Origin: Minisyncoccia bacterium
Lineage (GTDB): Bacteria; Patescibacteriota; Minisyncoccia; UBA6257; 2-01-FULL-56-20
Assembly (NCBI GenBank): GCA_050008535.1
Contig: JBEKML010000001.1
Span: 455,050 to 519,049 of the forward strand
DNA length: 64,000 nucleotides
Direction of reading: 5' to 3'
The position numbers and the translations under genes were made by a program. The notes beneath the pieces are model-generated. The model was not told where the DNA came from. It saw nothing but the letters and a program-made list of their open reading frames with translations, and searched no databases. Below are positions 19,867 through 30,354 of the stretch, one piece after another; within the stretch, counting starts at the first letter, position 1, and every line of letters begins with the position of its first letter.

Positions 19867-21591
19867 TCAATAACAGCCCTGCGTCGATTGGTACCAATAA
19901 TTGCATGAATAACATTCCGTGACTACCTGGCCCATTGTCGCAGTATTCCAGATACCCCCGCACTGGCCACAACTGGGCGCCCCCGTTTGGCAACCGGGAG
20001 GCGCATAGTCCGTGCGCCATCCTCCGACCCGCGTTTGGCAAGCTCCGGGACAAGTATTATTGCAGGCAGAATCAGCAGCGGGCCCGCAGGAGCCAGTACC
20101 AGTATACTGTTGGAATTGGATGCTATCGCAGTTGTAATCATAACTACCGTCTCCTCTGTCGGTTGTATACCATTGACTTGCTCCTCCTGGATGCGCACTT
20201 GAGTTGTAATCGTAGCAATCAGTGTTATTGCTGACATACCCCGAAGGGAGAGAATAGCCCGAGCAGACCTGCTGGGCCGAACCGGCACCATAACCGTCGC
20301 CGTCGTTATCAACGTAGCCACTCAGGTTCTGCCACTTACCCCCATCGCTGTCGTTGCAATCCCATCCCAGCGCCTGGCTTGCATCAAGGTAAGCGTAGCC
20401 ACTGCTCCCGTCGTCATAATAAGTTCTTCCATTAAGCGAACCCGATGCACCGAGGCACGCACTTCCATTCCAAGAGCCGACCGCCCCATAGCCGTCGTGG
20501 TCGGCATCCGTAACCACGGTTTCGCTCGTGTACACATAATAATTATTGTCATTGCAATCAACGTTGCTGCGATACCCGTCGCCGTCATTATCCGGGAAAT
20601 TAGGCGTCACGGCATTGCTTGCCGCGGAAGCAGCACCGTTGCCGTTGGCGTTCGTCGCATAGACCTTGAAGGTATACGAGGTGCCGTTCGTAAGGCCGGA
20701 GACGGTGCAGGGGCTTGAAGCGCAGGTCCCGGTGATGTTGCCCGGCGTGGAGCTCGCGGTGTAGCCCGTGATCGGGGAACCGCCGTTCGAAGCGGGAGCC
20801 GTGAAAGCAACGGATGCGTTGCCGTTGCCGGCCGACGCCGTGCCAATCGTCGGCGCTCCGGGAACGGTGGAAGGCGTCACGGCATTGCTTGCTGCGGACA
20901 AAGGACCATTGCCGATGGCGTTCGTCGCATAGACCTTGAAGGTATACGAGGTGCCGTTCGTAAGGCCGGAGACAGTGCAAGGGCTTGAAGCGCAGGTCCC
21001 GGTGATGTTGCCCGGCGTGGAGCTCGCGGTGTAGCCCGTGATCGGGGAACCGCCGTCTGAAGCGGGAGCCGTGAAAGCAACGGATGCGCTGCCGTTTCCC
21101 TTTGTTGCCGTGCCGATCGTGGGTGCGCCGGGAATGGTCGCGCATGTATTAGTAAGGGAATAGGCACCGTCGTTGCAGTCCACGACCGTACGGGACAGCA
21201 TCAAATTCAATCTCCTGTAGCCTGCCCCGGGAGAAGTTGAGGACGCCACCACTGTGGTAGTCGACGGCCAGCCATCCCCGTCGGCATCAAGTATCCACAA
21301 GTAGGACTTTACCAATTTGCCGGTACCCACGAGGACAAGAGAGCCCGTCCCGTTGAGAACGAACGATGAACCAATGTCGAAAACAATGGTTTGGCCGGAA
21401 TTGATGGTCAAGGTTTGCCCGGTGGCTATCGTAATACCCCCATCAACTCCATCAACCGTACCGGGAAACGTACAACTCGCCGAAACGTTGGCCGTGCCGG
21501 AAACGGCACTGGGACAATTGGTGGCATGGGTTTTCGGCGCAAAACCGATCAAGCAGACGGCCGCAATGAGAACAAGAAGGATTTTTTTCAT
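19867..21591 (-). CDS. Secreted surface protein with two tandem fibronectin-type-III-like domains and a C-terminal Cys- and Asp-rich (calcium-binding-like DxDGDG) region
   Basis: Signal peptide MKKILLVLIAAVCLIGFAPKTHA. A ~90-aa unit repeated twice (...SPCTVSGLTNGTSYTFKVYATNA...). DADGDGWP, DNDGDGY and DADHDGYG motifs. Many Cys at the C-terminus. Confidence 0.7.
   Translation of the reverse strand: MKKILLVLIAAVCLIGFAPKTHATNCPSAVSGTANVSASCTFPGTVDGVDGGITIATGQTLTINSGQTIVFDIGSSFVLNGTGSLVLVGTGKLVKSYLWILDADGDGWPSTTTVVASSTSPGAGYRRLNLMLSRTVVDCNDGAYSLTNTCATIPGAPTIGTATKGNGSASVAFTAPASDGGSPITGYTASSTPGNITGTCASSPCTVSGLTNGTSYTFKVYATNAIGNGPLSAASNAVTPSTVPGAPTIGTASAGNGNASVAFTAPASNGGSPITGYTASSTPGNITGTCASSPCTVSGLTNGTSYTFKVYATNANGNGAASAASNAVTPNFPDNDGDGYRSNVDCNDNNYYVYTSETVVTDADHDGYGAVGSWNGSACLGASGSLNGRTYYDDGSSGYAYLDASQALGWDCNDSDGGKWQNLSGYVDNDGDGYGAGSAQQVCSGYSLPSGYVSNNTDCYDYNSSAHPGGASQWYTTDRGDGSYDYNCDSIQFQQYTGTGSCGPAADSACNNTCPGACQTRVGGWRTDYAPPGCQTGAPSCGQCGGIWNTATMGQVVTECYSCNYWYQSTQGCY
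20590..21130. repeat. Two near-identical 270-bp tandem copies (intragenic, encoding the duplicated FN3-like domain)
   Basis: Lines 20641-20700 and 20911-20970 are almost identical. Antisense ORFs 20607..20846 and 20877..21167 translate to near-identical peptides. Confidence 0.8.
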
Positions 21592-22040
21592 TTGAGCGTT
21601 ATCTGTACCGAAGACGAATCCGCCCGATCCGCTGCATATATGATTATATCATATACGCTCTTATAAGTATCTGAGGCTGCCCAGGAACCCTTCCATAATC
21701 CCTGCGTAGCACTGCCTTCCGTCAGCGCGAGCGGATACGTGGTGCTTCCATTGTCCATGACCATCGTAACCAGCACAGAAGTAACGGGGACATTGTCCGA
21801 GACCTTGACGCTCATGGTCTGCGTGCCCCCCGATGCCGGATAAAAGGGGATCAAATATCCTTCCTGTAATTGCGGGCCAGTTAAGGTGTGGCTACTTATG
21901 GAAAATCTGTTATCGTCCCTCGGAAAAACCGTCGTGAGCGGCGGGAGTGGCTTATTGAATACGCCATGGAGCGCGAAAAATATCGAAAGCGTCACAACAA
22001 GGACCATCCCGACCGCCGCATAGAGATATTTTCTATTCAT
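21588..22040 (-). CDS. Hypothetical membrane-anchored or secreted protein
   Basis: N-terminal hydrophobic segment YLYAAVGMVLVVTLSIFFALHG. Overlaps the downstream gene by 4 nt (operon). Confidence 0.5.
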   Translation of the reverse strand: MNRKYLYAAVGMVLVVTLSIFFALHGVFNKPLPPLTTVFPRDDNRFSISSHTLTGPQLQEGYLIPFYPASGGTQTMSVKVSDNVPVTSVLVTMVMDNGSTTYPLALTEGSATQGLWKGSWAASDTYKSVYDIIIYAADRADSSSVQITLK

Positions 22041-22085
22041 GCCGATTATGAAACGGGCGACCTACGGTGTCGCCTAGAAAAAACA

Positions 22086-22649
22086 TTATTTCGTGATGAT
22101 CCGAACTTTCGGCAATTTGCTCTGGAGCGCCCTTAAAGTGCTTGACGGTATAGGGTTTCCGGTCAACCCCAAAACCTTCAAACTTTTAAGGTTCACGATG
22201 CTCGGCGGGAGAGCGGTCAGTTGATCGTTGAAGAGCGAAAGCATCCACAGATTCGGCAGATTCCCAATCTCATCCGGCAAGCTCGTGAGCGGGTTGTTGC
22301 CCAGGTAAAGAACCTGGAGATTCTTCAAATTGCCAATCTCCGGGGGTAGATCGGTCAAGCTATTGTTTGCCAAATTGAGTAGGGTCAAATTCGACATTTC
22401 TAAAACGCTCGTTGGTAGCGCGGTCAATTTTTGTCCGCTCAGGTTCAAACGGAATACGCTTATGGGATTCGCGGCCGCCTGCGCGGTGCTCGTCACCTCA
22501 ATGCCCCTGTCCATGAGCGGCGCGGGTTGCGTTGCTGCGGCATTATTGCCCGACGCAGGATTATTCGGATGTCGTGCCACGTAATATATCGATCCAGCCG
22601 CGATAAGAATAATGGCAACCGCAACTATCCAGAAAAAGACCTTATTCAT
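22086..22649 (-). CDS. Leucine-rich-repeat (LRR) protein with N-terminal TM anchor
   Basis: Repeated LxxLxLxxNxL units (LTLLNLANNSLTDLPPEIGNLKNLQVLYLGNNPLTSLPDEIGNLPNLWMLSL...). Confidence 0.75.
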   Translation of the reverse strand: MNKVFFWIVAVAIILIAAGSIYYVARHPNNPASGNNAAATQPAPLMDRGIEVTSTAQAAANPISVFRLNLSGQKLTALPTSVLEMSNLTLLNLANNSLTDLPPEIGNLKNLQVLYLGNNPLTSLPDEIGNLPNLWMLSLFNDQLTALPPSIVNLKSLKVLGLTGNPIPSSTLRALQSKLPKVRIITK

Positions 22650-23688
22650 TTACGATGATCCCTGCCGGAGCATCGCTTGAACCGATATTGCTCCATTGGT
22701 TCGCGTCAAAGCGAGGCGCGGTCAGACGGTAGCTTACTTCAAGGGACGCCGCGGATGCGGAAGGTTTGGCGAAAAGCGTAACGGTTCCTTTCGCTGCATT
22801 TTTCACGTACCACACGTCGCCGTCAAAACTCGGCGTGAGTATTACCACAAGCCCGTTCAGATTATTTTTCAGGATCTGCGTTGTTTCTTTAAAGAGCCAC
22901 AGATCGCTTCCCTTTTCCGCTCCCGCAAGATCAAGCGTGTAGGAGTATGTTTGGTCCGTAGAGAAACTCGTTCCCGGAAAATCGGCGACGCCCGTTGTTT
23001 CTCCCTTCACGCCGGTCATTTCCACGCCGTAGGTAGCGAATTTATCGCCGTTGATCGTATAGACTGGGTCAACGGTACCAACGGTGATTTTTCCCGCGCC
23101 GCCGCCGATGACAACGGTATCCGCTCCTGCTGTGCCGAAGCGCGCCGTCGTCCCACCGCCGCTCACTACATCAAGCTTATATCCTGGCCCCGTCACCCCG
23201 ATGCCGACATTGCCACTAGCACCTAGAATATTCAATGCATTTAAAACATTTCCACCCCCATCTGGCACTTGAAATCTCAGAGTTTTTGCTCCCCAGCTCC
23301 CCGCCTCTCCCCCTACCCCAATGCCACCAATCCAACCTTGGTATCCGCTAGAAGTGTCATAAGCATAGAAACCCACCAACTCCGCCAACGTCGCAGCTTG
23401 AGTGTTCCCGATACCAACAGCGGGATTACCAAGCCCACCAGAAGTAAAGGTCATCGACGCGCCAGCCACCGATAATTTTTGTCCCGGCGTTGTCATCCCG
23501 ATGCCGACATTGCCGTTGCTTAGGACACTGACGGCTCCCGAACAATTCGGGGGCGTGCAGCCGTTCGGGGGGCCGTTAAAAGCACTGACATGCGTGGTCG
23601 TGGTGGTGGTAAGCACGTAGGCCGCAAAAGATAACACAAGAACCAGGGCAACGAGAACTATGATGCGCTTGGTATCCTTGATATCCAT
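22642..23688 (-). CDS. Membrane-anchored surface protein with Gly-rich tail-fibre-like repeats (NGNVGIG.T.PG.KL.V)
   Basis: TM anchor IIVLVALVLVLSFAAYVL. Repeats SNGNVGIGMTTPGQKLSVAG and ASGNVGIGVTGPGYKLDVVSGG. Gly/Thr-rich beta-like C-terminus. Confidence 0.55.
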   Translation of the reverse strand: MDIKDTKRIIVLVALVLVLSFAAYVLTTTTTTHVSAFNGPPNGCTPPNCSGAVSVLSNGNVGIGMTTPGQKLSVAGASMTFTSGGLGNPAVGIGNTQAATLAELVGFYAYDTSSGYQGWIGGIGVGGEAGSWGAKTLRFQVPDGGGNVLNALNILGASGNVGIGVTGPGYKLDVVSGGGTTARFGTAGADTVVIGGGAGKITVGTVDPVYTINGDKFATYGVEMTGVKGETTGVADFPGTSFSTDQTYSYTLDLAGAEKGSDLWLFKETTQILKNNLNGLVVILTPSFDGDVWYVKNAAKGTVTLFAKPSASAASLEVSYRLTAPRFDANQWSNIGSSDAPAGIIVNE

Positions 23689-23758
23689 TAGCTTAAGTCT
23701 ATCAAATTATGGGGCAGGGGGGGCTGTGGATAGCTCGGTTGTTATATACTAAAGGCAA

Positions 23759-25141
23759 ATGCCCAAGGGACAAACACTTGTGGAGGTTCTCATTGCTGTC
23801 GCGTTGGGAGTCGTTTTGTTTACTGGGGCTGCAAACCTGATCATCCCAGCCATAAAAACAAACACTACGACAAATAGTGTCGTAACTGCGACAGCGCTAC
23901 AAAAGGAGCTTTTGGACAATGTCTCGGCATGGGCGGGAGGAAACTGGAATGGTATTCTTGCGCTCGCAACAACCTCCGCACATACCTATTACCTTGTAAC
24001 CACGCAATCGCCCTTTGTGGCCACAAGCGGCGCGGAATCCGTCACGGTGAATACAACCACGTTCGCCCGATATTTTTATGTGGACGATGTCATCCGCAAT
24101 TCAAGCGGTTACATCGCGACGAGCAGCGGCACCTACGATCCATCCACGAAAAAAGTTACGGTCGTCTGCAGTCGACCGCAAGGTACTCCCTTGACCGTTT
24201 CCGCCTACCTGACGCGGAACTACGAAAATGCTTATGATCAGACTGATTGGTCGGGGGGCGGAGGGTTGAACGGGCCGATCACTACGGTGGGGAACCAGTT
24301 TTCCACCTCTTCGAATATTAGCTTCACGAGCATTCCAGGGTCGCTTCTTCTGATTACGACAGGAGGAAGCGGCGCAATAAACTCGAGCAGTTATACTCAT
24401 TGGGCATGGAACGATCTCATTGGGTGGATTGACTTTTGGAACAACGGGAGCGGCACAACTGTCACCGGGCAGGGCCTCACGGGTTACGCGAGTTCCTCGG
24501 TGGGGCAGATCTCTCTCGATTGCCACACAACCAGCATCGGCAACATATGCTCCACAAGCACTTATCAGGTGGCGAACGACGGCTCCGGCCATCTTTCCGG
24601 CTGGGCCTGGAACGACAGCCTTGGCTGGATCGGCTTTAATAGTAGTTCCCCCGCCTACCAAGTTACCATTGATGCGAGCGGAGATTTTCAGGGCTATGCA
24701 TGGAACGATTTCGCAGGGTGGATCAGTTTCAACTGCGATAATACCACAAGCAGCGGCTGCGCAAGCTCCACCTATAAGACGCAAACGTTCTGGACTCCTT
24801 CGTCCACCATAACTGGCTACTTGGATTCCGCCACCTTTGACACCAACTCGGTGTCGGCGCAGCTCATTTCGGTCCTCTGGCAGGGCACCCAACCAACAAG
24901 CACAACGGTGAAGTTCCAATTCGCGGTGAGCAGTGTTTCAAGCGGCCCATGGACCACCTTTCTTGGCACGGATGGGACTTCGAACACCTATTATATTCCG
25001 CTCGGTCCCGGTGTCCCGCTTGCGCTTTCTTCCGCCTACACCAGCAACTTCCGCTATTTCCGCTACCGCATTTTCATCGTTGGCCCGAATAATGCCTCAA
25101 GCGCGCAGGTGGACAATATCGCTATAAGCTGGAACCCTTAG
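23759..25141 (+). CDS. Type IV pilin-like protein (class III signal peptide, G|QTLVE) with a large C-terminal domain carrying three W-rich repeats (GWAWND.LGWI.F)
   Basis: MPKGQTLVEVLIAVALGVVLF prepilin motif with Glu at +5. Repeats HWAWNDLIGWIDFW, GWAWNDSLGWIGFN and GYAWNDFAGWISFN. Confidence 0.65.
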   Translation: MPKGQTLVEVLIAVALGVVLFTGAANLIIPAIKTNTTTNSVVTATALQKELLDNVSAWAGGNWNGILALATTSAHTYYLVTTQSPFVATSGAESVTVNTTTFARYFYVDDVIRNSSGYIATSSGTYDPSTKKVTVVCSRPQGTPLTVSAYLTRNYENAYDQTDWSGGGGLNGPITTVGNQFSTSSNISFTSIPGSLLLITTGGSGAINSSSYTHWAWNDLIGWIDFWNNGSGTTVTGQGLTGYASSSVGQISLDCHTTSIGNICSTSTYQVANDGSGHLSGWAWNDSLGWIGFNSSSPAYQVTIDASGDFQGYAWNDFAGWISFNCDNTTSSGCASSTYKTQTFWTPSSTITGYLDSATFDTNSVSAQLISVLWQGTQPTSTTVKFQFAVSSVSSGPWTTFLGTDGTSNTYYIPLGPGVPLALSSAYTSNFRYFRYRIFIVGPNNASSAQVDNIAISWNP

Positions 25142-27798: not shown

Positions 27799-28218
27799 TC
27801 AGAGAACGGGGCCGTCGTTATAGGTTGCGTAGTCCGAAGTAAGTTCTTCTCCGGCTTTTATTTCACGAAGAGAGGTGAAGCGCCCCCCAACAGAATCAAC
27901 TTTTATATTGGGAGTTGTGGAATAGTTTATGAAAGAACTGATAGTGATATTGTTGAGACCGTCTTTCGGGACAAGATAACAATTTTCCCGGTAGACACAT
28001 ATGTCGTCTACATATTTTTTCACGGATTCGGGGATGGCTGGATCGTTCATGATCTCGGCCTCCGGGATTTCGGTGAATTCGATGTTGTCTCCCGGAAACG
28101 GGTCAATGCCGGGGGGGATGTCGCGGATGGCGAAGAGGCCCACGCCGCCGAGCGGCGAAGGTTGCGGGCGCACATAGACACCGTTCTTTAAGTTGGCGAT
28201 CAACAGCGATTTATCCAT
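27799..28218 (-). CDS. Minimal SET-domain protein (putative protein-lysine methyltransferase), paralog A
   Basis: GGVGLFA (GxG), INYSTTPN (NHSxxPN-like) and GEELTSDY (ELxxDY) SET signatures. 139 aa. Confidence 0.7.
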   Translation of the reverse strand: MDKSLLIANLKNGVYVRPQPSPLGGVGLFAIRDIPPGIDPFPGDNIEFTEIPEAEIMNDPAIPESVKKYVDDICVYRENCYLVPKDGLNNITISSFINYSTTPNIKVDSVGGRFTSLREIKAGEELTSDYATYNDGPVL

Positions 28219-28284
28219 GCAATAATATTACTATTATAAGTTGTCTAAACCAAGACGAGATGGTATTATCGAAAAAACAATAAT

Positions 28285-29322
28285 ATGAGAAAGAATCCGT
28301 TTGAAGATGAACAGAGGCAGCGGTGCGACCGATCGTATGCGGAGGTGCAGAAATTATTAGAGGTTCTTAATCGTTATAAAGCGACCGAGCTCGCGCCGGG
28401 AATTGTTGTGGAGCGCGTTGAATGTCATGATGATGAAGCGGCAAAGAGAGCCGGGCGGGAGATTCATGAATTTTACGGTAAATTCTTTACGCCAGAGGAA
28501 CAAACAGATTCGATGGCATATGAAATAGGGATAAAATATGGATTGACTGACAACTATGCGGCTAGGAATGCCGAGGGGAAACTGATAACCCTTTTGCAGA
28601 CCGCAAGCATCGAGATTCCTGGTGGGGAACCCGGTACTTCAGAGATTGCGTTGGTTGTCTGGTATGTTGCGACGGATCCGGAGTATAAGGGTCAGTCGCT
28701 AATGCCGGATCTTATTGAAATGGCCCTCAGGGGGTCGCTTGAGAAAGCAAAAACAGGTGGCAAGGAGATGGGTTCCTTTATCGGAGAAGCGGAACCGGAG
28801 GTGGAAAAACTTTTTAATCGCTTCGGCCTCAAGCGATTCTATTACGAAAAGAGCGACGGCGCCCTACAGGAGGTTCCCTACGAGTTTCCTCCCGAAGATG
28901 ATTCGGAAGTGGGGGCTCCCGCACATCTTATGATGCGTTTTTTCGATGGAACCGAAAAATTGCCGCTTGATAGGTTAGGGGGGATGGTGGATGCGCTTCA
29001 CGCTGAATATACCCACAGCCAGTATTTTACGCCGGACTACCTGAAATTTGTTCAAGAATGGTACAACCAACGCGTGGCGCCAGACGAGCAGGATCACACG
29101 GTTATCAATAAGCTGACTGCGGGTCTTTATCATCGTCAATACAATAAAATCGTGGAGAATATGAGAAAGCTCTTCAATGACCGCATGAGAGGCGTGCGGG
29201 AAGTGTTTAGTCTTTCGGGGCAGGAACGCTCCACGTTGCTTAAGCAGGGGAAGACGATTCTTGATTGGGGGAACGTAATGAATCCGAAGCGGAGAGAGGA
29301 GGCGGAGGGGACAAACGAGTAG
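28285..29322 (+). CDS. Hypothetical protein, possibly GNAT-like acyltransferase fold
   Basis: IALVVWYVATDPEYKGQSLMPDLIEMAL resembles GNAT motif A (V.p.YrG.G....L). Otherwise no match I recognise. Confidence 0.4.
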   Translation: MRKNPFEDEQRQRCDRSYAEVQKLLEVLNRYKATELAPGIVVERVECHDDEAAKRAGREIHEFYGKFFTPEEQTDSMAYEIGIKYGLTDNYAARNAEGKLITLLQTASIEIPGGEPGTSEIALVVWYVATDPEYKGQSLMPDLIEMALRGSLEKAKTGGKEMGSFIGEAEPEVEKLFNRFGLKRFYYEKSDGALQEVPYEFPPEDDSEVGAPAHLMMRFFDGTEKLPLDRLGGMVDALHAEYTHSQYFTPDYLKFVQEWYNQRVAPDEQDHTVINKLTAGLYHRQYNKIVENMRKLFNDRMRGVREVFSLSGQERSTLLKQGKTILDWGNVMNPKRREEAEGTNE

Positions 29323-29348
29323 CGGCCGCGTCAGAGAGAGGCGGCCGC
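29322..29348. terminator. GCGGCCGC-N11-GCGGCCGC hairpin between convergent genes
   Basis: Perfect 8-bp GC stem between the stop at 29320-29322 (+) and the stop at 29353-29355 (-). Confidence 0.5.
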
Positions 29349-29352
29349 ACGG

Positions 29353-29799
29353 TTAACGTAGATTGAAGAGTATCACCCCGGCCAGCACAAGGCCGACGGC
29401 TACCCATTGTTTGGGTGTGGCGGGGATCGCTTCGGGAATCCATCCCGGTTTCACTCGCATGATGATTTCGCTATATGCGAGCGTGGCGATCCAGTAAAGA
29501 GCGATGACGAGCGTGATCGTAGTCATCTTTCCCGGTTCCTTCCGGAGAGCGACGAGCATCAGGTAAAATCCGCTCGCTTCGGCAACGCCCATGAGCGTTG
29601 CGTACGTTGCAGAGGCGAGCGTCACCTTCTGGAAATCGCTTCGGGCAGCGATGAGAATGGTGGCGATTGGGATGATCCATACCGCCGATTCGAACAGCAT
29701 CGTCACGTTCTCTCCGTGGGCCACATTCGCCTTGGTGGCGAAGATGTTGTAGGTTCCGAAAAGGAGAGAAGCGAGAATGGCATAAGCAAGCCAACCCAT
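29353..29799 (-). CDS. Small EamA/DMT-superfamily-like membrane protein (4 TM)
   Basis: 148 aa with four hydrophobic helices. Three nt downstream of SET paralog B (operon). Confidence 0.5.
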   Translation of the reverse strand: MGWLAYAILASLLFGTYNIFATKANVAHGENVTMLFESAVWIIPIATILIAARSDFQKVTLASATYATLMGVAEASGFYLMLVALRKEPGKMTTITLVIALYWIATLAYSEIIMRVKPGWIPEAIPATPKQWVAVGLVLAGVILFNLR

Positions 29800-29802
29800 C
29801 TC

Positions 29803-30276
29803 TTAGCCCTCCTCCAGGCCGGTTTCGTCGTTGTAGGTTTCGTAGTCGACGGTGAGCTCTTCGCCAGCTTCGATTGGACGAAGCGTGTAGAAGTAGTCCT
29901 CCGGGTCGGCTCCGACGTTCGGGGTCTTGGAGTGGTTGATGTAGAAGACCGGTGGCAGGACGTTCATCCCGCGCCGGGGGACGAACAGGTATCCTCCCCG
30001 GCTGATACACATGTCTTCTACGTATTTCTTCACCGTGTCGGGGATCTCCGGGTCGTCCAGGATCTTCGCTGCCGACACTTTGGCGAACGACATGTTGTTC
30101 GCGCGTTCATTGAACGGGTCAATGCCGGCGGGAATGTCACGGATGGCGAAGACGCCGATGCCGTGAGTTGGAGAGCATTGCAGGCGGACGAAGACGCCTT
30201 GCCTGAGGTGCTCAAGGATCTCTTTGGTATTTTTTAATCTCAATTGCAGCCTCCCTGCTGTTAGAAAATATAGCAT
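29803..30276 (-). CDS. Minimal SET-domain protein (putative protein-lysine methyltransferase), paralog B
   Basis: GIGVFA, INHSKTPN (NHSxxPN) and GEELTVDY. Clearly homologous to paralog A (27799..28218). Confidence 0.72.
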   Translation of the reverse strand: MLYFLTAGRLQLRLKNTKEILEHLRQGVFVRLQCSPTHGIGVFAIRDIPAGIDPFNERANNMSFAKVSAAKILDDPEIPDTVKKYVEDMCISRGGYLFVPRRGMNVLPPVFYINHSKTPNVGADPEDYFYTLRPIEAGEELTVDYETYNDETGLEEG

Positions 30277-30354
30277 AATTTACGTTGCTTGTCAAATTTT
30301 TGGGCATACTGTCAAGCGGTTCAAAAATAATTGTAAGTCTGGTACAATGCTTCG

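Follow-up and report, generated by a model that had tools for sequence, protein, structure and literature searches.

Two minimal SET-domain proteins at a Minisyncoccia locus

The window analysed here is a stretch of 64,000 nucleotides from the genome of a Minisyncoccia bacterium (assembly GCA_050008535.1, contig JBEKML010000001.1, positions 455,050 to 519,049); Minisyncoccia is a class of the phylum Minisyncoccota, the ultra-small Patescibacteria or Candidate Phyla Radiation (CPR). The window encodes two small SET-domain proteins, SET-A and SET-D, together with a GNAT-fold protein and an EamA-like membrane protein, and a check of its open reading frames (ORFs) recovered all four exactly where an earlier note on this DNA had placed them. 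Directly upstream, outside the coordinates covered by that note, lie the genes of an ATP-grasp protein and of a protein of the saccharopine/carboxyspermidine dehydrogenase family (SDH-like), the second of which begins 4 nt past the end of the first (Table 1). Comparison with related loci points to this ATP-grasp gene as the recurrent partner of the SET genes. NCBI gives SET-A (MGC9968595.1) and SET-D alike the name 'SET domain-containing protein' and the ATP-grasp protein the name phosphoribosylamine--glycine ligase, and lists the GNAT-fold and EamA-like proteins as hypothetical. The window lies on a 496-kb metagenome contig from peat (JGI 3300038451), and identical copies of the locus are present in further assemblies, among them a second JGI sample (3300018015).

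Both small proteins pass the Pfam SET model (PF00856, gathering score 22.4), SET-A with 34.5 bits (E 2.9e-8) and SET-D with 40.2 bits (E 4.9e-10), and they are paralogues, as the earlier note had proposed, with 49% identity across 132 aa (E 3e-44). The AlphaFold2 (AF2) model of SET-D, made from an alignment of 53 sequences, has a mean predicted local distance difference test score (pLDDT) of 89.5. Its top Foldseek match in the PDB is the chlorovirus methyltransferase vSET (3kma, E 2.2e-7, template modelling score 0.71 normalised to target), and further matches, all with probability 1.0, are MLL1/3/4, S. pombe Set7, SETD8, ASH1L and SET7/9. From its 49% identity to SET-D we infer that SET-A has the SET fold too. 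In addition, the profile of the SET family aligns end-to-end with the SET domain of MLL3/MLL4 (positions 6-135 of 137, E 1.4e-9). A cupin or other fold, which the earlier note had kept in mind as the alternative, is ruled out by Pfam, the PDB profile search and Foldseek.

The same note had credited both proteins with the full set of SET signatures, and most of this stands: GxG is present in both (GGVGLFA in SET-A, HGIGVFA in SET-D), as is ELxxDY with the catalytic tyrosine (ELTSDY and ELTVDY), and SET-D has the complete NHSxxPN motif (INHSKTPN). SET-A departs from the signature in reading INYSTTPN, with a tyrosine replacing the motif histidine; its orthologue at L007, the closest relative found, has kept the histidine (INHSEDPN). 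In the alignment of 53 family members, G41, N114, P119, N120, E140, L141 and Y145 are invariant, and there is little or no variation at the GxG glycines and at the N, S, P and N of NHSxxPN; the histidine of the latter motif is variable, with NSS, NCS and NNS variants. Judged by these motifs, the catalytic apparatus is complete in SET-D and almost so in SET-A. The post-SET cysteine cluster (CxCxxxxC) is absent from both proteins, which end 7-13 residues past ELxxDY and have no cysteine there. The secretion signals for which the earlier note had proposed a search are absent as well: neither SET-A nor SET-D has an N-terminal hydrophobic, signal-like segment and both N-termini are hydrophilic.

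The ORF of SET-D extends to an ATG at 30276, which gives the 157 aa of the earlier note, but the protein probably starts at TTG 30243 and would then have 146 aa, because GGGAGG is located 6 nt upstream of this TTG, because a promoter match at 30295-30267 (TTGACA-17-TATATT, 11 of 12 positions, with TG ahead of the -10 box) overlaps the ATG and because six of the seven sequences in the 90% cluster of SET-D have 145-146 aa, with other relatives of similar length. Identity to the L007 orthologues is 81% for SET-A and 77% for SET-D; the corresponding ratios of non-synonymous to synonymous substitution rates (dN/dS) are ~0.08 and ~0.17, which are approximate values as dS is near saturation. On this sequence comparison, both SET-A and SET-D are maintained under purifying selection. 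The duplication that gave rise to them looks recent and common to L007 in a neighbour-joining tree of SET domains, a tree that carries no support values.

SET-domain enzymes are the textbook writers of eukaryotic chromatin; for prokaryotic SET proteins we know of few assigned roles, namely those of a few pathogen effectors, one archaeal case and BurB. vSET (PBCV-1 A612L) is a dimeric H3K27 methyltransferase of 119 aa from a chlorovirus. It shares with the window SETs a minimal SET core without pre-SET and post-SET zinc modules, in which NHSxxPN and ExxxxY align, and for a window SET it ranks first both in the structural comparison (3kma) and in the single-sequence search of the PDB. However, the identity is just ~23%, a 30-residue insert (…DPxIPxxVKKYVxDxC…) and an N-terminal helix are conserved in the window family and set it apart from vSET, and vSET acts on a histone, whereas the window organism has no histones. 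MLL3/MLL4 (KMT2C/D, Trithorax-type) are the best whole-domain profile match and have all catalytic motifs in common with the window SETs; unlike these enzymes, the window SETs are stand-alone prokaryotic proteins that lack the post-SET cysteine cluster and partner-complex domains. The window SETs are thus members of the SET superfamily, as which they are already annotated, with an architecture nearest to vSET and a sequence nearest to the MLL type.

BurB of Burkholderia thailandensis, a SET enzyme of 180 aa, S-methylates free methionine (PMC12542666). Like the window SETs it is a small, stand-alone bacterial SET protein encoded among metabolic genes, and it sets a precedent for a non-protein substrate, but the match between the two is weak and covers 43 positions in the region of the C-terminal motif (E 1.9e-4), and the nucleophile is S rather than N. 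Chlamydia NUE and Legionella RomA/LegAS4 have, as here, a SET catalytic domain in a bacterium (PMC3980110, PMC2904774); these proteins are larger, are secreted by type III or type IV systems and target eukaryotic histones, whereas the window SETs have no secretion signal, no ankyrin and no other targeting domains. The review of bacterial SET proteins is concerned with effectors and horizontal transfer (PMC3980110). In the eukaryotic TTLL12 a SET-like domain is fused to a TTL-type ATP-grasp domain (PMC3520985); here the two are neighbouring genes rather than a fusion and the ATP-grasp is of PurD type, and we regard this as a resemblance only.

Table 1. Genes and sequence features at the locus, with positions in the window
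Feature	Position	Strand	Evidence
PurD-like ATP-grasp ligase, 452 aa	25267..26625	+	Pfam GARS_A, GARS_C
Saccharopine / carboxyspermidine-dehydrogenase-family protein (SDH-like), 385 aa	26630..27787	+	Pfam Sacchrp_dh_NADP, Sacchrp_dh_C
SET-A, minimal SET-domain methyltransferase, 139 aa	27799..28218	-	Pfam SET; motifs GGVGLFA, INYSTTPN, ELTSDY
AT-rich divergent intergenic region between SET-A and the GNAT-fold gene, 66 nt	28219..28284	.	promoter-like hexamers on both strands
GNAT-fold protein, 345 aa, with C-terminal helical extension	28285..29322	+	AF2 model, Foldseek, Pfam matches of the family
GC-rich hairpin in the 30-nt gap between the GNAT-fold and EamA-like genes	29322..29348	.	dG -24.4 kcal/mol
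EamA/DMT-like membrane protein, 148 aa, single repeat	29353..29799	-	Pfam EamA (sub-threshold), hydropathy
SET-D, minimal SET-domain methyltransferase, probably 146 aa (ORF to ATG 30276)	29803..30243	-	motifs HGIGVFA, INHSKTPN, ELTVDY
Near-consensus sigma-70-type promoter match of the SET-D / EamA unit	30267..30295	-	consensus match

Recurrent neighbours of minimal SET genes

The earlier note had called SET proteins uncommon in bacteria, which is overstated. A single peptide pattern finds at least 530 minimal SET relatives in one genome per GTDB species; their hosts are Patescibacteria, many freshwater Burkholderiales, Verrucomicrobiota, Bdellovibrionota and others, and the family is also present among proteins that NCBI labels Nanoarchaeia (DPANN archaea). 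A scan of IMG/VR added 149 relatives in viral contigs, several of them giant-virus metagenome-assembled genomes (GVMAG), the best being 49% identical. One further homologue lies on a 58-kb contig (L009) that we judged to be phage-like from the absence of Pfam matches for most of its genes.

To describe the neighbourhoods, hidden Markov models (HMMs) were run on the six-frame ORFs of the best 80 of these at least 530 genome loci. Among the ~14 loci of Patescibacteria type, seven (L013, L014, L048, L050, L058, L059 and L090) have the PurD-like ATP-grasp gene of the window at most 8 kb from SET. In five of these seven there is also a protein of ~300 aa that passes the Pfam model LPG_synthase_C, the aminoacyl-tRNA-dependent catalytic domain of MprF; the same protein reaches the threshold of 22 for Acetyltransf_6 in L059 (24.1 bits) and is just under it in L013 (21.2 bits). 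Most of the SET/ATP-grasp clusters (for example L013, L058 and L090), as well as the metagenome locus L137, contain a SET protein of ~250 aa with a post-SET motif, and two to four SET genes per cluster are common. The order and strand of the genes vary between loci, gaps are often 0-40 nt and the ligase-adjacent SETs fall into several clades of a rough neighbour-joining tree; these differences in order, strand and clade argue against inherited synteny alone. At L090 (9395-10903) the ATP-grasp gene is split across frames in an otherwise complete cluster with SET and LPG_synthase_C-like genes, either by a frameshift or by an assembly error.

For the reverse test, 80 metagenome loci were fetched with an alignment of the ATP-grasp protein; their ATP-grasp proteins are 51-73% identical to that of the window. 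The commonest genuine neighbours were SET genes (12 loci) and LPG_synthase_C-like genes (9 loci), and every other family was found at seven loci or fewer. Of the SET genes at these loci, 13 fall in the inner 2 kb around the ligase and two at 2-8 kb; the outer zone holds 1.6 times more sequence and the SET density is ~10 times higher in the inner one (binomial p 1.5e-4, an optimistic value, as it is uncorrected for the phylogenetic dependence between loci). The LPG_synthase_C-like gene was found ten times in the inner zone and never at 2-8 kb. By these sequence comparisons, the recurrent partner of minimal SET proteins in Patescibacteria is a PurD-like ATP-grasp ligase, often together with a FemX/MprF-like transferase. 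The window itself has neither an LPG_synthase_C-like gene nor a SET of the post-SET type. A literature search for SET domains in Patescibacteria or CPR returned nothing relevant and, as far as could be found, the neighbourhood of SET, PurD-like ATP-grasp and LPG_synthase_C-like genes is undescribed; the partnership is possibly new and is the part of this locus worth following.

The purine-enzyme name that NCBI has given to the ATP-grasp protein may not be secure. We treat the protein as a PurD-like carboxylate-amine ligase because it scores 119 bits against TIGR00877 (purD), which has a cut-off of 288, and because it has no Pfam match to the GARS_N domain. Profile matches in the PDB are to PurD only (E 2e-24), and no purine-pathway gene is recurrent near the ATP-grasp gene in the 80 metagenome loci. 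The protein is 81% identical to its counterpart in L007 and 55-57% identical to those in L013, L014, L048, L058 and L059, which include metagenome-assembled genomes (MAGs) of Uhrbacteria and of the Patescibacteria group. A tRNA-binding-domain gene in the neighbourhood was rejected as a functional partner and is put down to synteny, since it belongs to a block of tRNA_bind, FKBP and response-regulator genes that recurs in the window, L007, L059 and L137.

The SDH-like protein has its best PDB match in carboxyspermidine dehydrogenase (CASDH; 8deb, E 1.7e-35) and scores 80.8 bits against the CASDH model NF043000, the cut-off of which is 800. One SET/ATP-grasp pair (L109:9304-13228) adjoins what looks like a polyamine operon, with products that we take, from their sequences, to be pyruvoyl arginine decarboxylase (PvlArgDC), CASDH and carboxyspermidine decarboxylase (CASDC). 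To the CASDH of this operon the window protein is distantly related (68.7 bits), and the window has no CASDC, which among these loci is present in L109 only. On the low score and the missing CASDC, we rejected the idea that the SDH-like gene is a true polyamine CASDH; on sequence it is a paralogue of the true CASDH and not an orthologue. Members of its subfamily sit beside the ATP-grasp gene in two loci (L007, L050) and beside GNAT homologues in two others (L012, L093), and the pairwise recurrent adjacencies chain as SET, ATP-grasp, SDH-like and GNAT, with the link from SET to ATP-grasp by far the best supported.

In ~50 loci of freshwater Burkholderiales (L021-L088; for example L080:7992-9736 and L035:5922-8294), the gene of a conserved protein of ~290 aa converges with that of the minimal SET; this protein has sub-threshold matches to ATE_C (arginyl-tRNA-protein transferase) and Acetyltransf_6. 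A gene for a 2OG-Fe(II) oxygenase frequently lies close by, and the loci of Polynucleobacter also encode a Cys-rich protein, which we took from its sequence to be of the CxxCxxCC (YkgJ-like) type. These loci may represent a second pairing of a SET protein with an aminoacyl-transferase-like protein. Homology between the LPG_synthase_C-like proteins, the ATE_C-like proteins of Burkholderiales and the GNAT family of the window was considered and rejected, as hhalign gave probabilities of 0.2-0.3% and showed no relation.

The GNAT-fold and EamA-like proteins

In L007, the genes of SET-D and SET-A are adjacent on one strand, with no GNAT or EamA gene, and a convergent operon leads from the ATP-grasp gene via the SDH-like gene to a third SET gene, with gaps of 4 and 9 nt; the third SET protein has 170 aa and a post-SET Cys motif. 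The GNAT and EamA genes were either inserted in the lineage of the window or lost in L007. Because the SET pair of L007 has neither of them, the two genes are, on present sequences, not obligate partners of the SET pair. The distribution of the paired arrangement, for which the earlier note had proposed a test, is narrow: a pair of SET and GNAT genes was found in contigs of this same genome (L001-L006) and in none of the others among 80 SET-centred loci, 80 ATP-grasp-centred loci and 6 contigs with GNAT homologues, and outside L001-L006 none of the ~170 SET- or ATP-grasp-centred loci has a member of the GNAT family or the EamA gene of the window.

The three closest GNAT homologues that were traced (L093, L012 and L011) have no SET gene on their contigs. 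In L093, the final 29 nt of an SDH-like gene are shared with the GNAT homologue; in L012, an SDH-like gene of the window subfamily is followed by two GNAT paralogues and these by an EamA gene of 148 aa; L011 has neither an SDH-like nor an EamA gene. The operon in L012 (3068-6058) encodes the GNAT paralogues (360 and 350 aa), an amidohydrolase, a flavodoxin-like protein, the SDH-like protein and the EamA protein. That GNAT and EamA form an orthologous pair in L012 and the window was rejected: the two EamA proteins, each of 148 aa, have no BLASTP similarity to each other and the pairs are at best analogous. Distant members of the GNAT family adjoin CN_hydrolase genes.

The fold that the earlier note had seen in the 345-aa protein is borne out, but its motif A is degenerate. 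The Pfam match of the protein itself is sub-threshold (Acetyltransf_9, E 0.035, 14.5 bits with a threshold of 25) and a PDB sequence search with it returned nothing informative; Acetyltransf_1 is matched by 36 of the 64 aligned family members, with a best E of 9.5e-16. The AF2 model, made from an alignment of four sequences, has a pLDDT of 81, and the top 50 PDB matches listed by Foldseek for this model are GNAT-fold acetyltransferases (E 1e-6 to 1e-5), among them NatD, Naa60, Naa50, PaiA, SpeG, EctA and aminoglycoside acetyltransferases. The model thus supports a GNAT fold, to which the protein adds an N-terminal helix and a C-terminal helical extension of ~110 residues. With SpeG, PaiA and NatD/Naa60 it has the fold in common (Foldseek probability 1.0, E ~1e-6) at an identity of just 8-17%; they differ from it in lacking both helical additions and its KGQSLM motif.

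In place of [RQ]xxGx[AG], the acyl-CoA pyrophosphate loop, the motif A of the protein reads KGQSLM. The position of the glycine is S or P in the closest relatives and G in 42 of the 64 family members, and the distant members have a canonical, RGKGLA-like motif. Since the motif is degenerate, the use of acyl-CoA by the 345-aa protein is not assured. The family is rare: an index of 5.8 billion proteins holds four clusters of it, a profile search of this collection returned only four proteins, and an exhaustive HMMER scan of 1.84 billion found 119 representatives at E <= 1e-3.

The EamA-like protein matches the Pfam EamA model across residues 3-146 with 24.7 bits (E 3.2e-5), under the gathering score of 28.2. 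Its hydropathy profile has five hydrophobic segments, instead of the four transmembrane segments of the earlier note, and by sequence it is a half-size protein made up of a single EamA repeat. Typical EamA/DMT transporters have two repeats and 10 transmembrane segments, and with its single repeat the window protein would have to dimerise. Its 90% cluster has one member, and among the ~170 loci the gene was found in this genome only. The start codon of the EamA gene lies 3 nt beyond the stop codon of SET-D, with a purine-rich stretch within the end of SET-D, and the two genes are very probably translationally coupled; the earlier note had rightly placed them in one unit.

Possible functions of the locus and minor features

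Our preferred reading, to which we assign a probability of about 0.45, is that the SET proteins are cytoplasmic lysine (amine) N-methyltransferases with an endogenous protein or peptide target that is common to the ATP-grasp ligase. SET-A and SET-D would stem from a recent duplication, would both be kept by selection and would belong to a widespread minimal SET family of ~130-150 aa, which resembles chlorovirus vSET and is free of pre-SET and post-SET zinc modules. From the folds, motifs, paralogy, selection, operon geometry and neighbourhood statistics given above, we infer the methyl acceptor, a dimeric state and the coupling to the ligase as follows. Each protein would most likely bind S-adenosylmethionine (AdoMet) via the GxG and N(H/Y)SxxPN segments and methylate a primary amine, by default the epsilon-amine of lysine, in a channel closed by the tyrosine of ELxxDY; both probably act as dimers, as vSET does, and would do so in the cytoplasm of the Minisyncoccia cell on an endogenous target. 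Methylation of lysine or another amine is favoured because it is the default of the fold and because the family profile is closest to protein-lysine methyltransferases.

In the same preferred reading, the functional partner would be the upstream PurD-like ATP-grasp carboxylate-amine ligase, which in other Patescibacteria may be joined by the FemX/MprF-like aminoacyl-transferase and a SET of the post-SET type. It is the partnership with the ligase and this transferase that suggests a protein or peptide as the target, likely a peptide or protein tail that undergoes ligation as well as lysine methylation. RimK, TTL, ATE1 and L/F-transferase are precedents for protein modification by ATP-grasp, GNAT-fold aminoacyl-transferase and methyltransferase enzymes. 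An evolutionary link of protein-modifying enzymes to bacterial peptide-metabolite systems has been argued for (PMC2938197). The GNAT-fold and EamA-like proteins would belong with the SDH-like gene, as a pair for amine acylation and export that here lies between the two SET genes.

Several observations weigh against this interpretation. In about 75% of the ATP-grasp loci, neither SET nor LPG_synthase_C-like genes occur in the vicinity, and a SET gene is found at none of the 11 loci with the most similar ATP-grasp genes (L097-L107), five of which are contigs of less than 4.1 kb. The binomial p, optimistic as it is, counts here too. Comparison of the window with L007, L059 and L137 shows that, in this lineage, what separates the ATP-grasp gene from the tRNA-binding-domain gene is a variable spot, and permissiveness for insertion beside the ATP-grasp gene could contribute to the pattern. 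SET-A has a tyrosine in place of the motif histidine. Finally, the coupling of SET-D to a membrane exporter fits a small-molecule product better than a protein, and sequence tools cannot separate a protein or peptide target from a small-molecule pathway.

Such a pathway is the main alternative and a serious one, if rather unlikely: ligase, CASDH-like dehydrogenase, SETs, GNAT-fold protein and EamA-like protein would together build, N-methylate, N-acylate and export a lysine- or polyamine-like amine, for example a methylated compatible solute or a modified polyamine, and the SETs would act on a free aminoalkyl chain. Every neighbour has precedents among enzymes of amines and carboxylates, with the SDH-like protein leading to carboxyspermidine dehydrogenase and the GNAT model to SpeG, PaiA and EctA; the CN_hydrolase genes beside distant GNAT-family members, the polyamine operon next to the SET/ATP-grasp pair of L109, the translational coupling of SET-D to the exporter and the chain of adjacencies from SET through ATP-grasp, SDH-like and GNAT to EamA all agree with it, and BurB is a small bacterial SET that methylates a free amino acid (PMC12542666). 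However, the full-length profile is closest to MLL3/4 (E 1.4e-9), while BurB matches the 43 C-terminal positions only (E 1.9e-4); the EamA and GNAT genes occur with SET nowhere else among the loci screened; the SDH-like protein is a CASDH paralogue and CASDC is in none of these loci bar L109; and the clusters of other Patescibacteria hold canonical SETs of the post-SET type. Doubtful to a similar degree is the proposal of an undescribed three-enzyme system in Patescibacteria, in which the PurD-like ligase, the aminoacyl-tRNA-dependent FemX/MprF-like transferase and one to four SETs are jointly responsible for the assembly and N-methylation of a peptide, cell-envelope component or small metabolite that bears a lysine or amine, with the GNAT-fold protein and the half-size EamA protein as additions in this genome. 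If true, it would make these SETs non-histone, and possibly non-protein, amine methyltransferases in organisms of minimal metabolism.

It is improbable, but of some weight, that there is no functional module at all and that accessory genes have gathered in a variable spot beside the ATP-grasp gene, with the SETs acting on an unrelated endogenous protein. In its favour, the window, L007, L059 and L137 each have a different set of genes between ATP-grasp and the tRNA-binding/FKBP/response-regulator block, most ATP-grasp loci have no SET and the SET family is highly mobile, being found in phage-like and giant-virus contigs and in many phyla. Against it, the adjacency recurs with ATP-grasp genes that are only 51-64% identical, with several SET clades and in varied order and strand, the SET density is 10 times higher near the ligase than farther off, and in L007 a SET gene sits inside the ATP-grasp-SDH operon with a gap of 9 nt. 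The dedicated module that the earlier note had suggested, in which SET pair and GNAT-fold protein methylate and acetylate lysines of a nucleoid or ribosomal protein, is less probable still, even though SET-A and the GNAT gene diverge from a common AT-rich region of 66 nt with promoter-like sites in both directions and the top Foldseek matches of the GNAT model include the protein N-terminal acetyltransferases NatD, Naa60 and Naa50. The arrangement is present in this one genome only and absent from the SET pair of L007 and the other SET loci screened; GNAT relatives lie beside an SDH-like gene, which is the conserved neighbour of the GNAT gene, without any SET; and motif A is degenerate in this GNAT subfamily.

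Host proteins, the other kind of target that the earlier note had raised, are very unlikely. As host-directed effectors, the SETs would be delivered into a host and methylate its chromatin or proteins in the manner of Chlamydia NUE and Legionella RomA. In favour of this, Patescibacteria are generally regarded as episymbionts, the family extends to DPANN archaea and viruses, and the nearest protein in fold, vSET, methylates histone H3 at K27. Nevertheless, neither SET protein has a signal-like segment at its N-terminus, the score against the Legionella effector model NF043024 is 10.5 bits with a cut-off of 550, the locus has no secretion-system genes and the same family is encoded on chromosomes of free-living freshwater Burkholderiales. 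To our knowledge, the hosts of cultured members of the phylum are prokaryotes, and bacteria have no histones.

A vSET-like minimal SET family, as this locus shows, has a wide distribution: it is found in Patescibacteria, among proteins labelled Nanoarchaeia by NCBI, in freshwater Burkholderiales, in phage-like contigs and in giant viruses. If SET, ligase and transferase act on one substrate, as our preferred reading has it for SET and ligase, the locus offers a testable entry to the role of SET proteins in cells without histones and also to what a conserved orphan ligase does in reduced genomes; if they do not, it is a locus with two annotated SET paralogues among accessory genes.

Some minor features complete the description of the region. 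In the divergent intergenic region between SET-A and the GNAT-fold gene, the promoter-like sites are consensus matches at 28249-28222 on the minus strand and 28241-28269 on the plus strand. The hairpin between the convergent GNAT and EamA genes contains two NotI sites (GCGGCCGC ... GCGGCCGC), has a z of -4.3 compared with shuffled sequences and no U-tract, and it is possible that it acts as a bidirectional terminator. An ORF of 276 aa at 29407-30237 (+) is antisense to the EamA and SET-D genes; we take it to be spurious, since both sense genes are supported by homology. Upstream of the ATP-grasp gene, at 23759-25141 (+), the window encodes a protein of 460 aa whose N-terminus (GQTLVEVLIAVALG) is of prepilin type and in which a Trp-rich motif recurs (HWAWNDLIGWIDFW, GWAWNDSLGWIGF and GYAWNDFAGWISF). 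It adjoins four unannotated minus-strand genes (19867-23688), one of them with an fn3 domain, and from these sequences the region 19867-25141 looks like a pilus or adhesin cluster.

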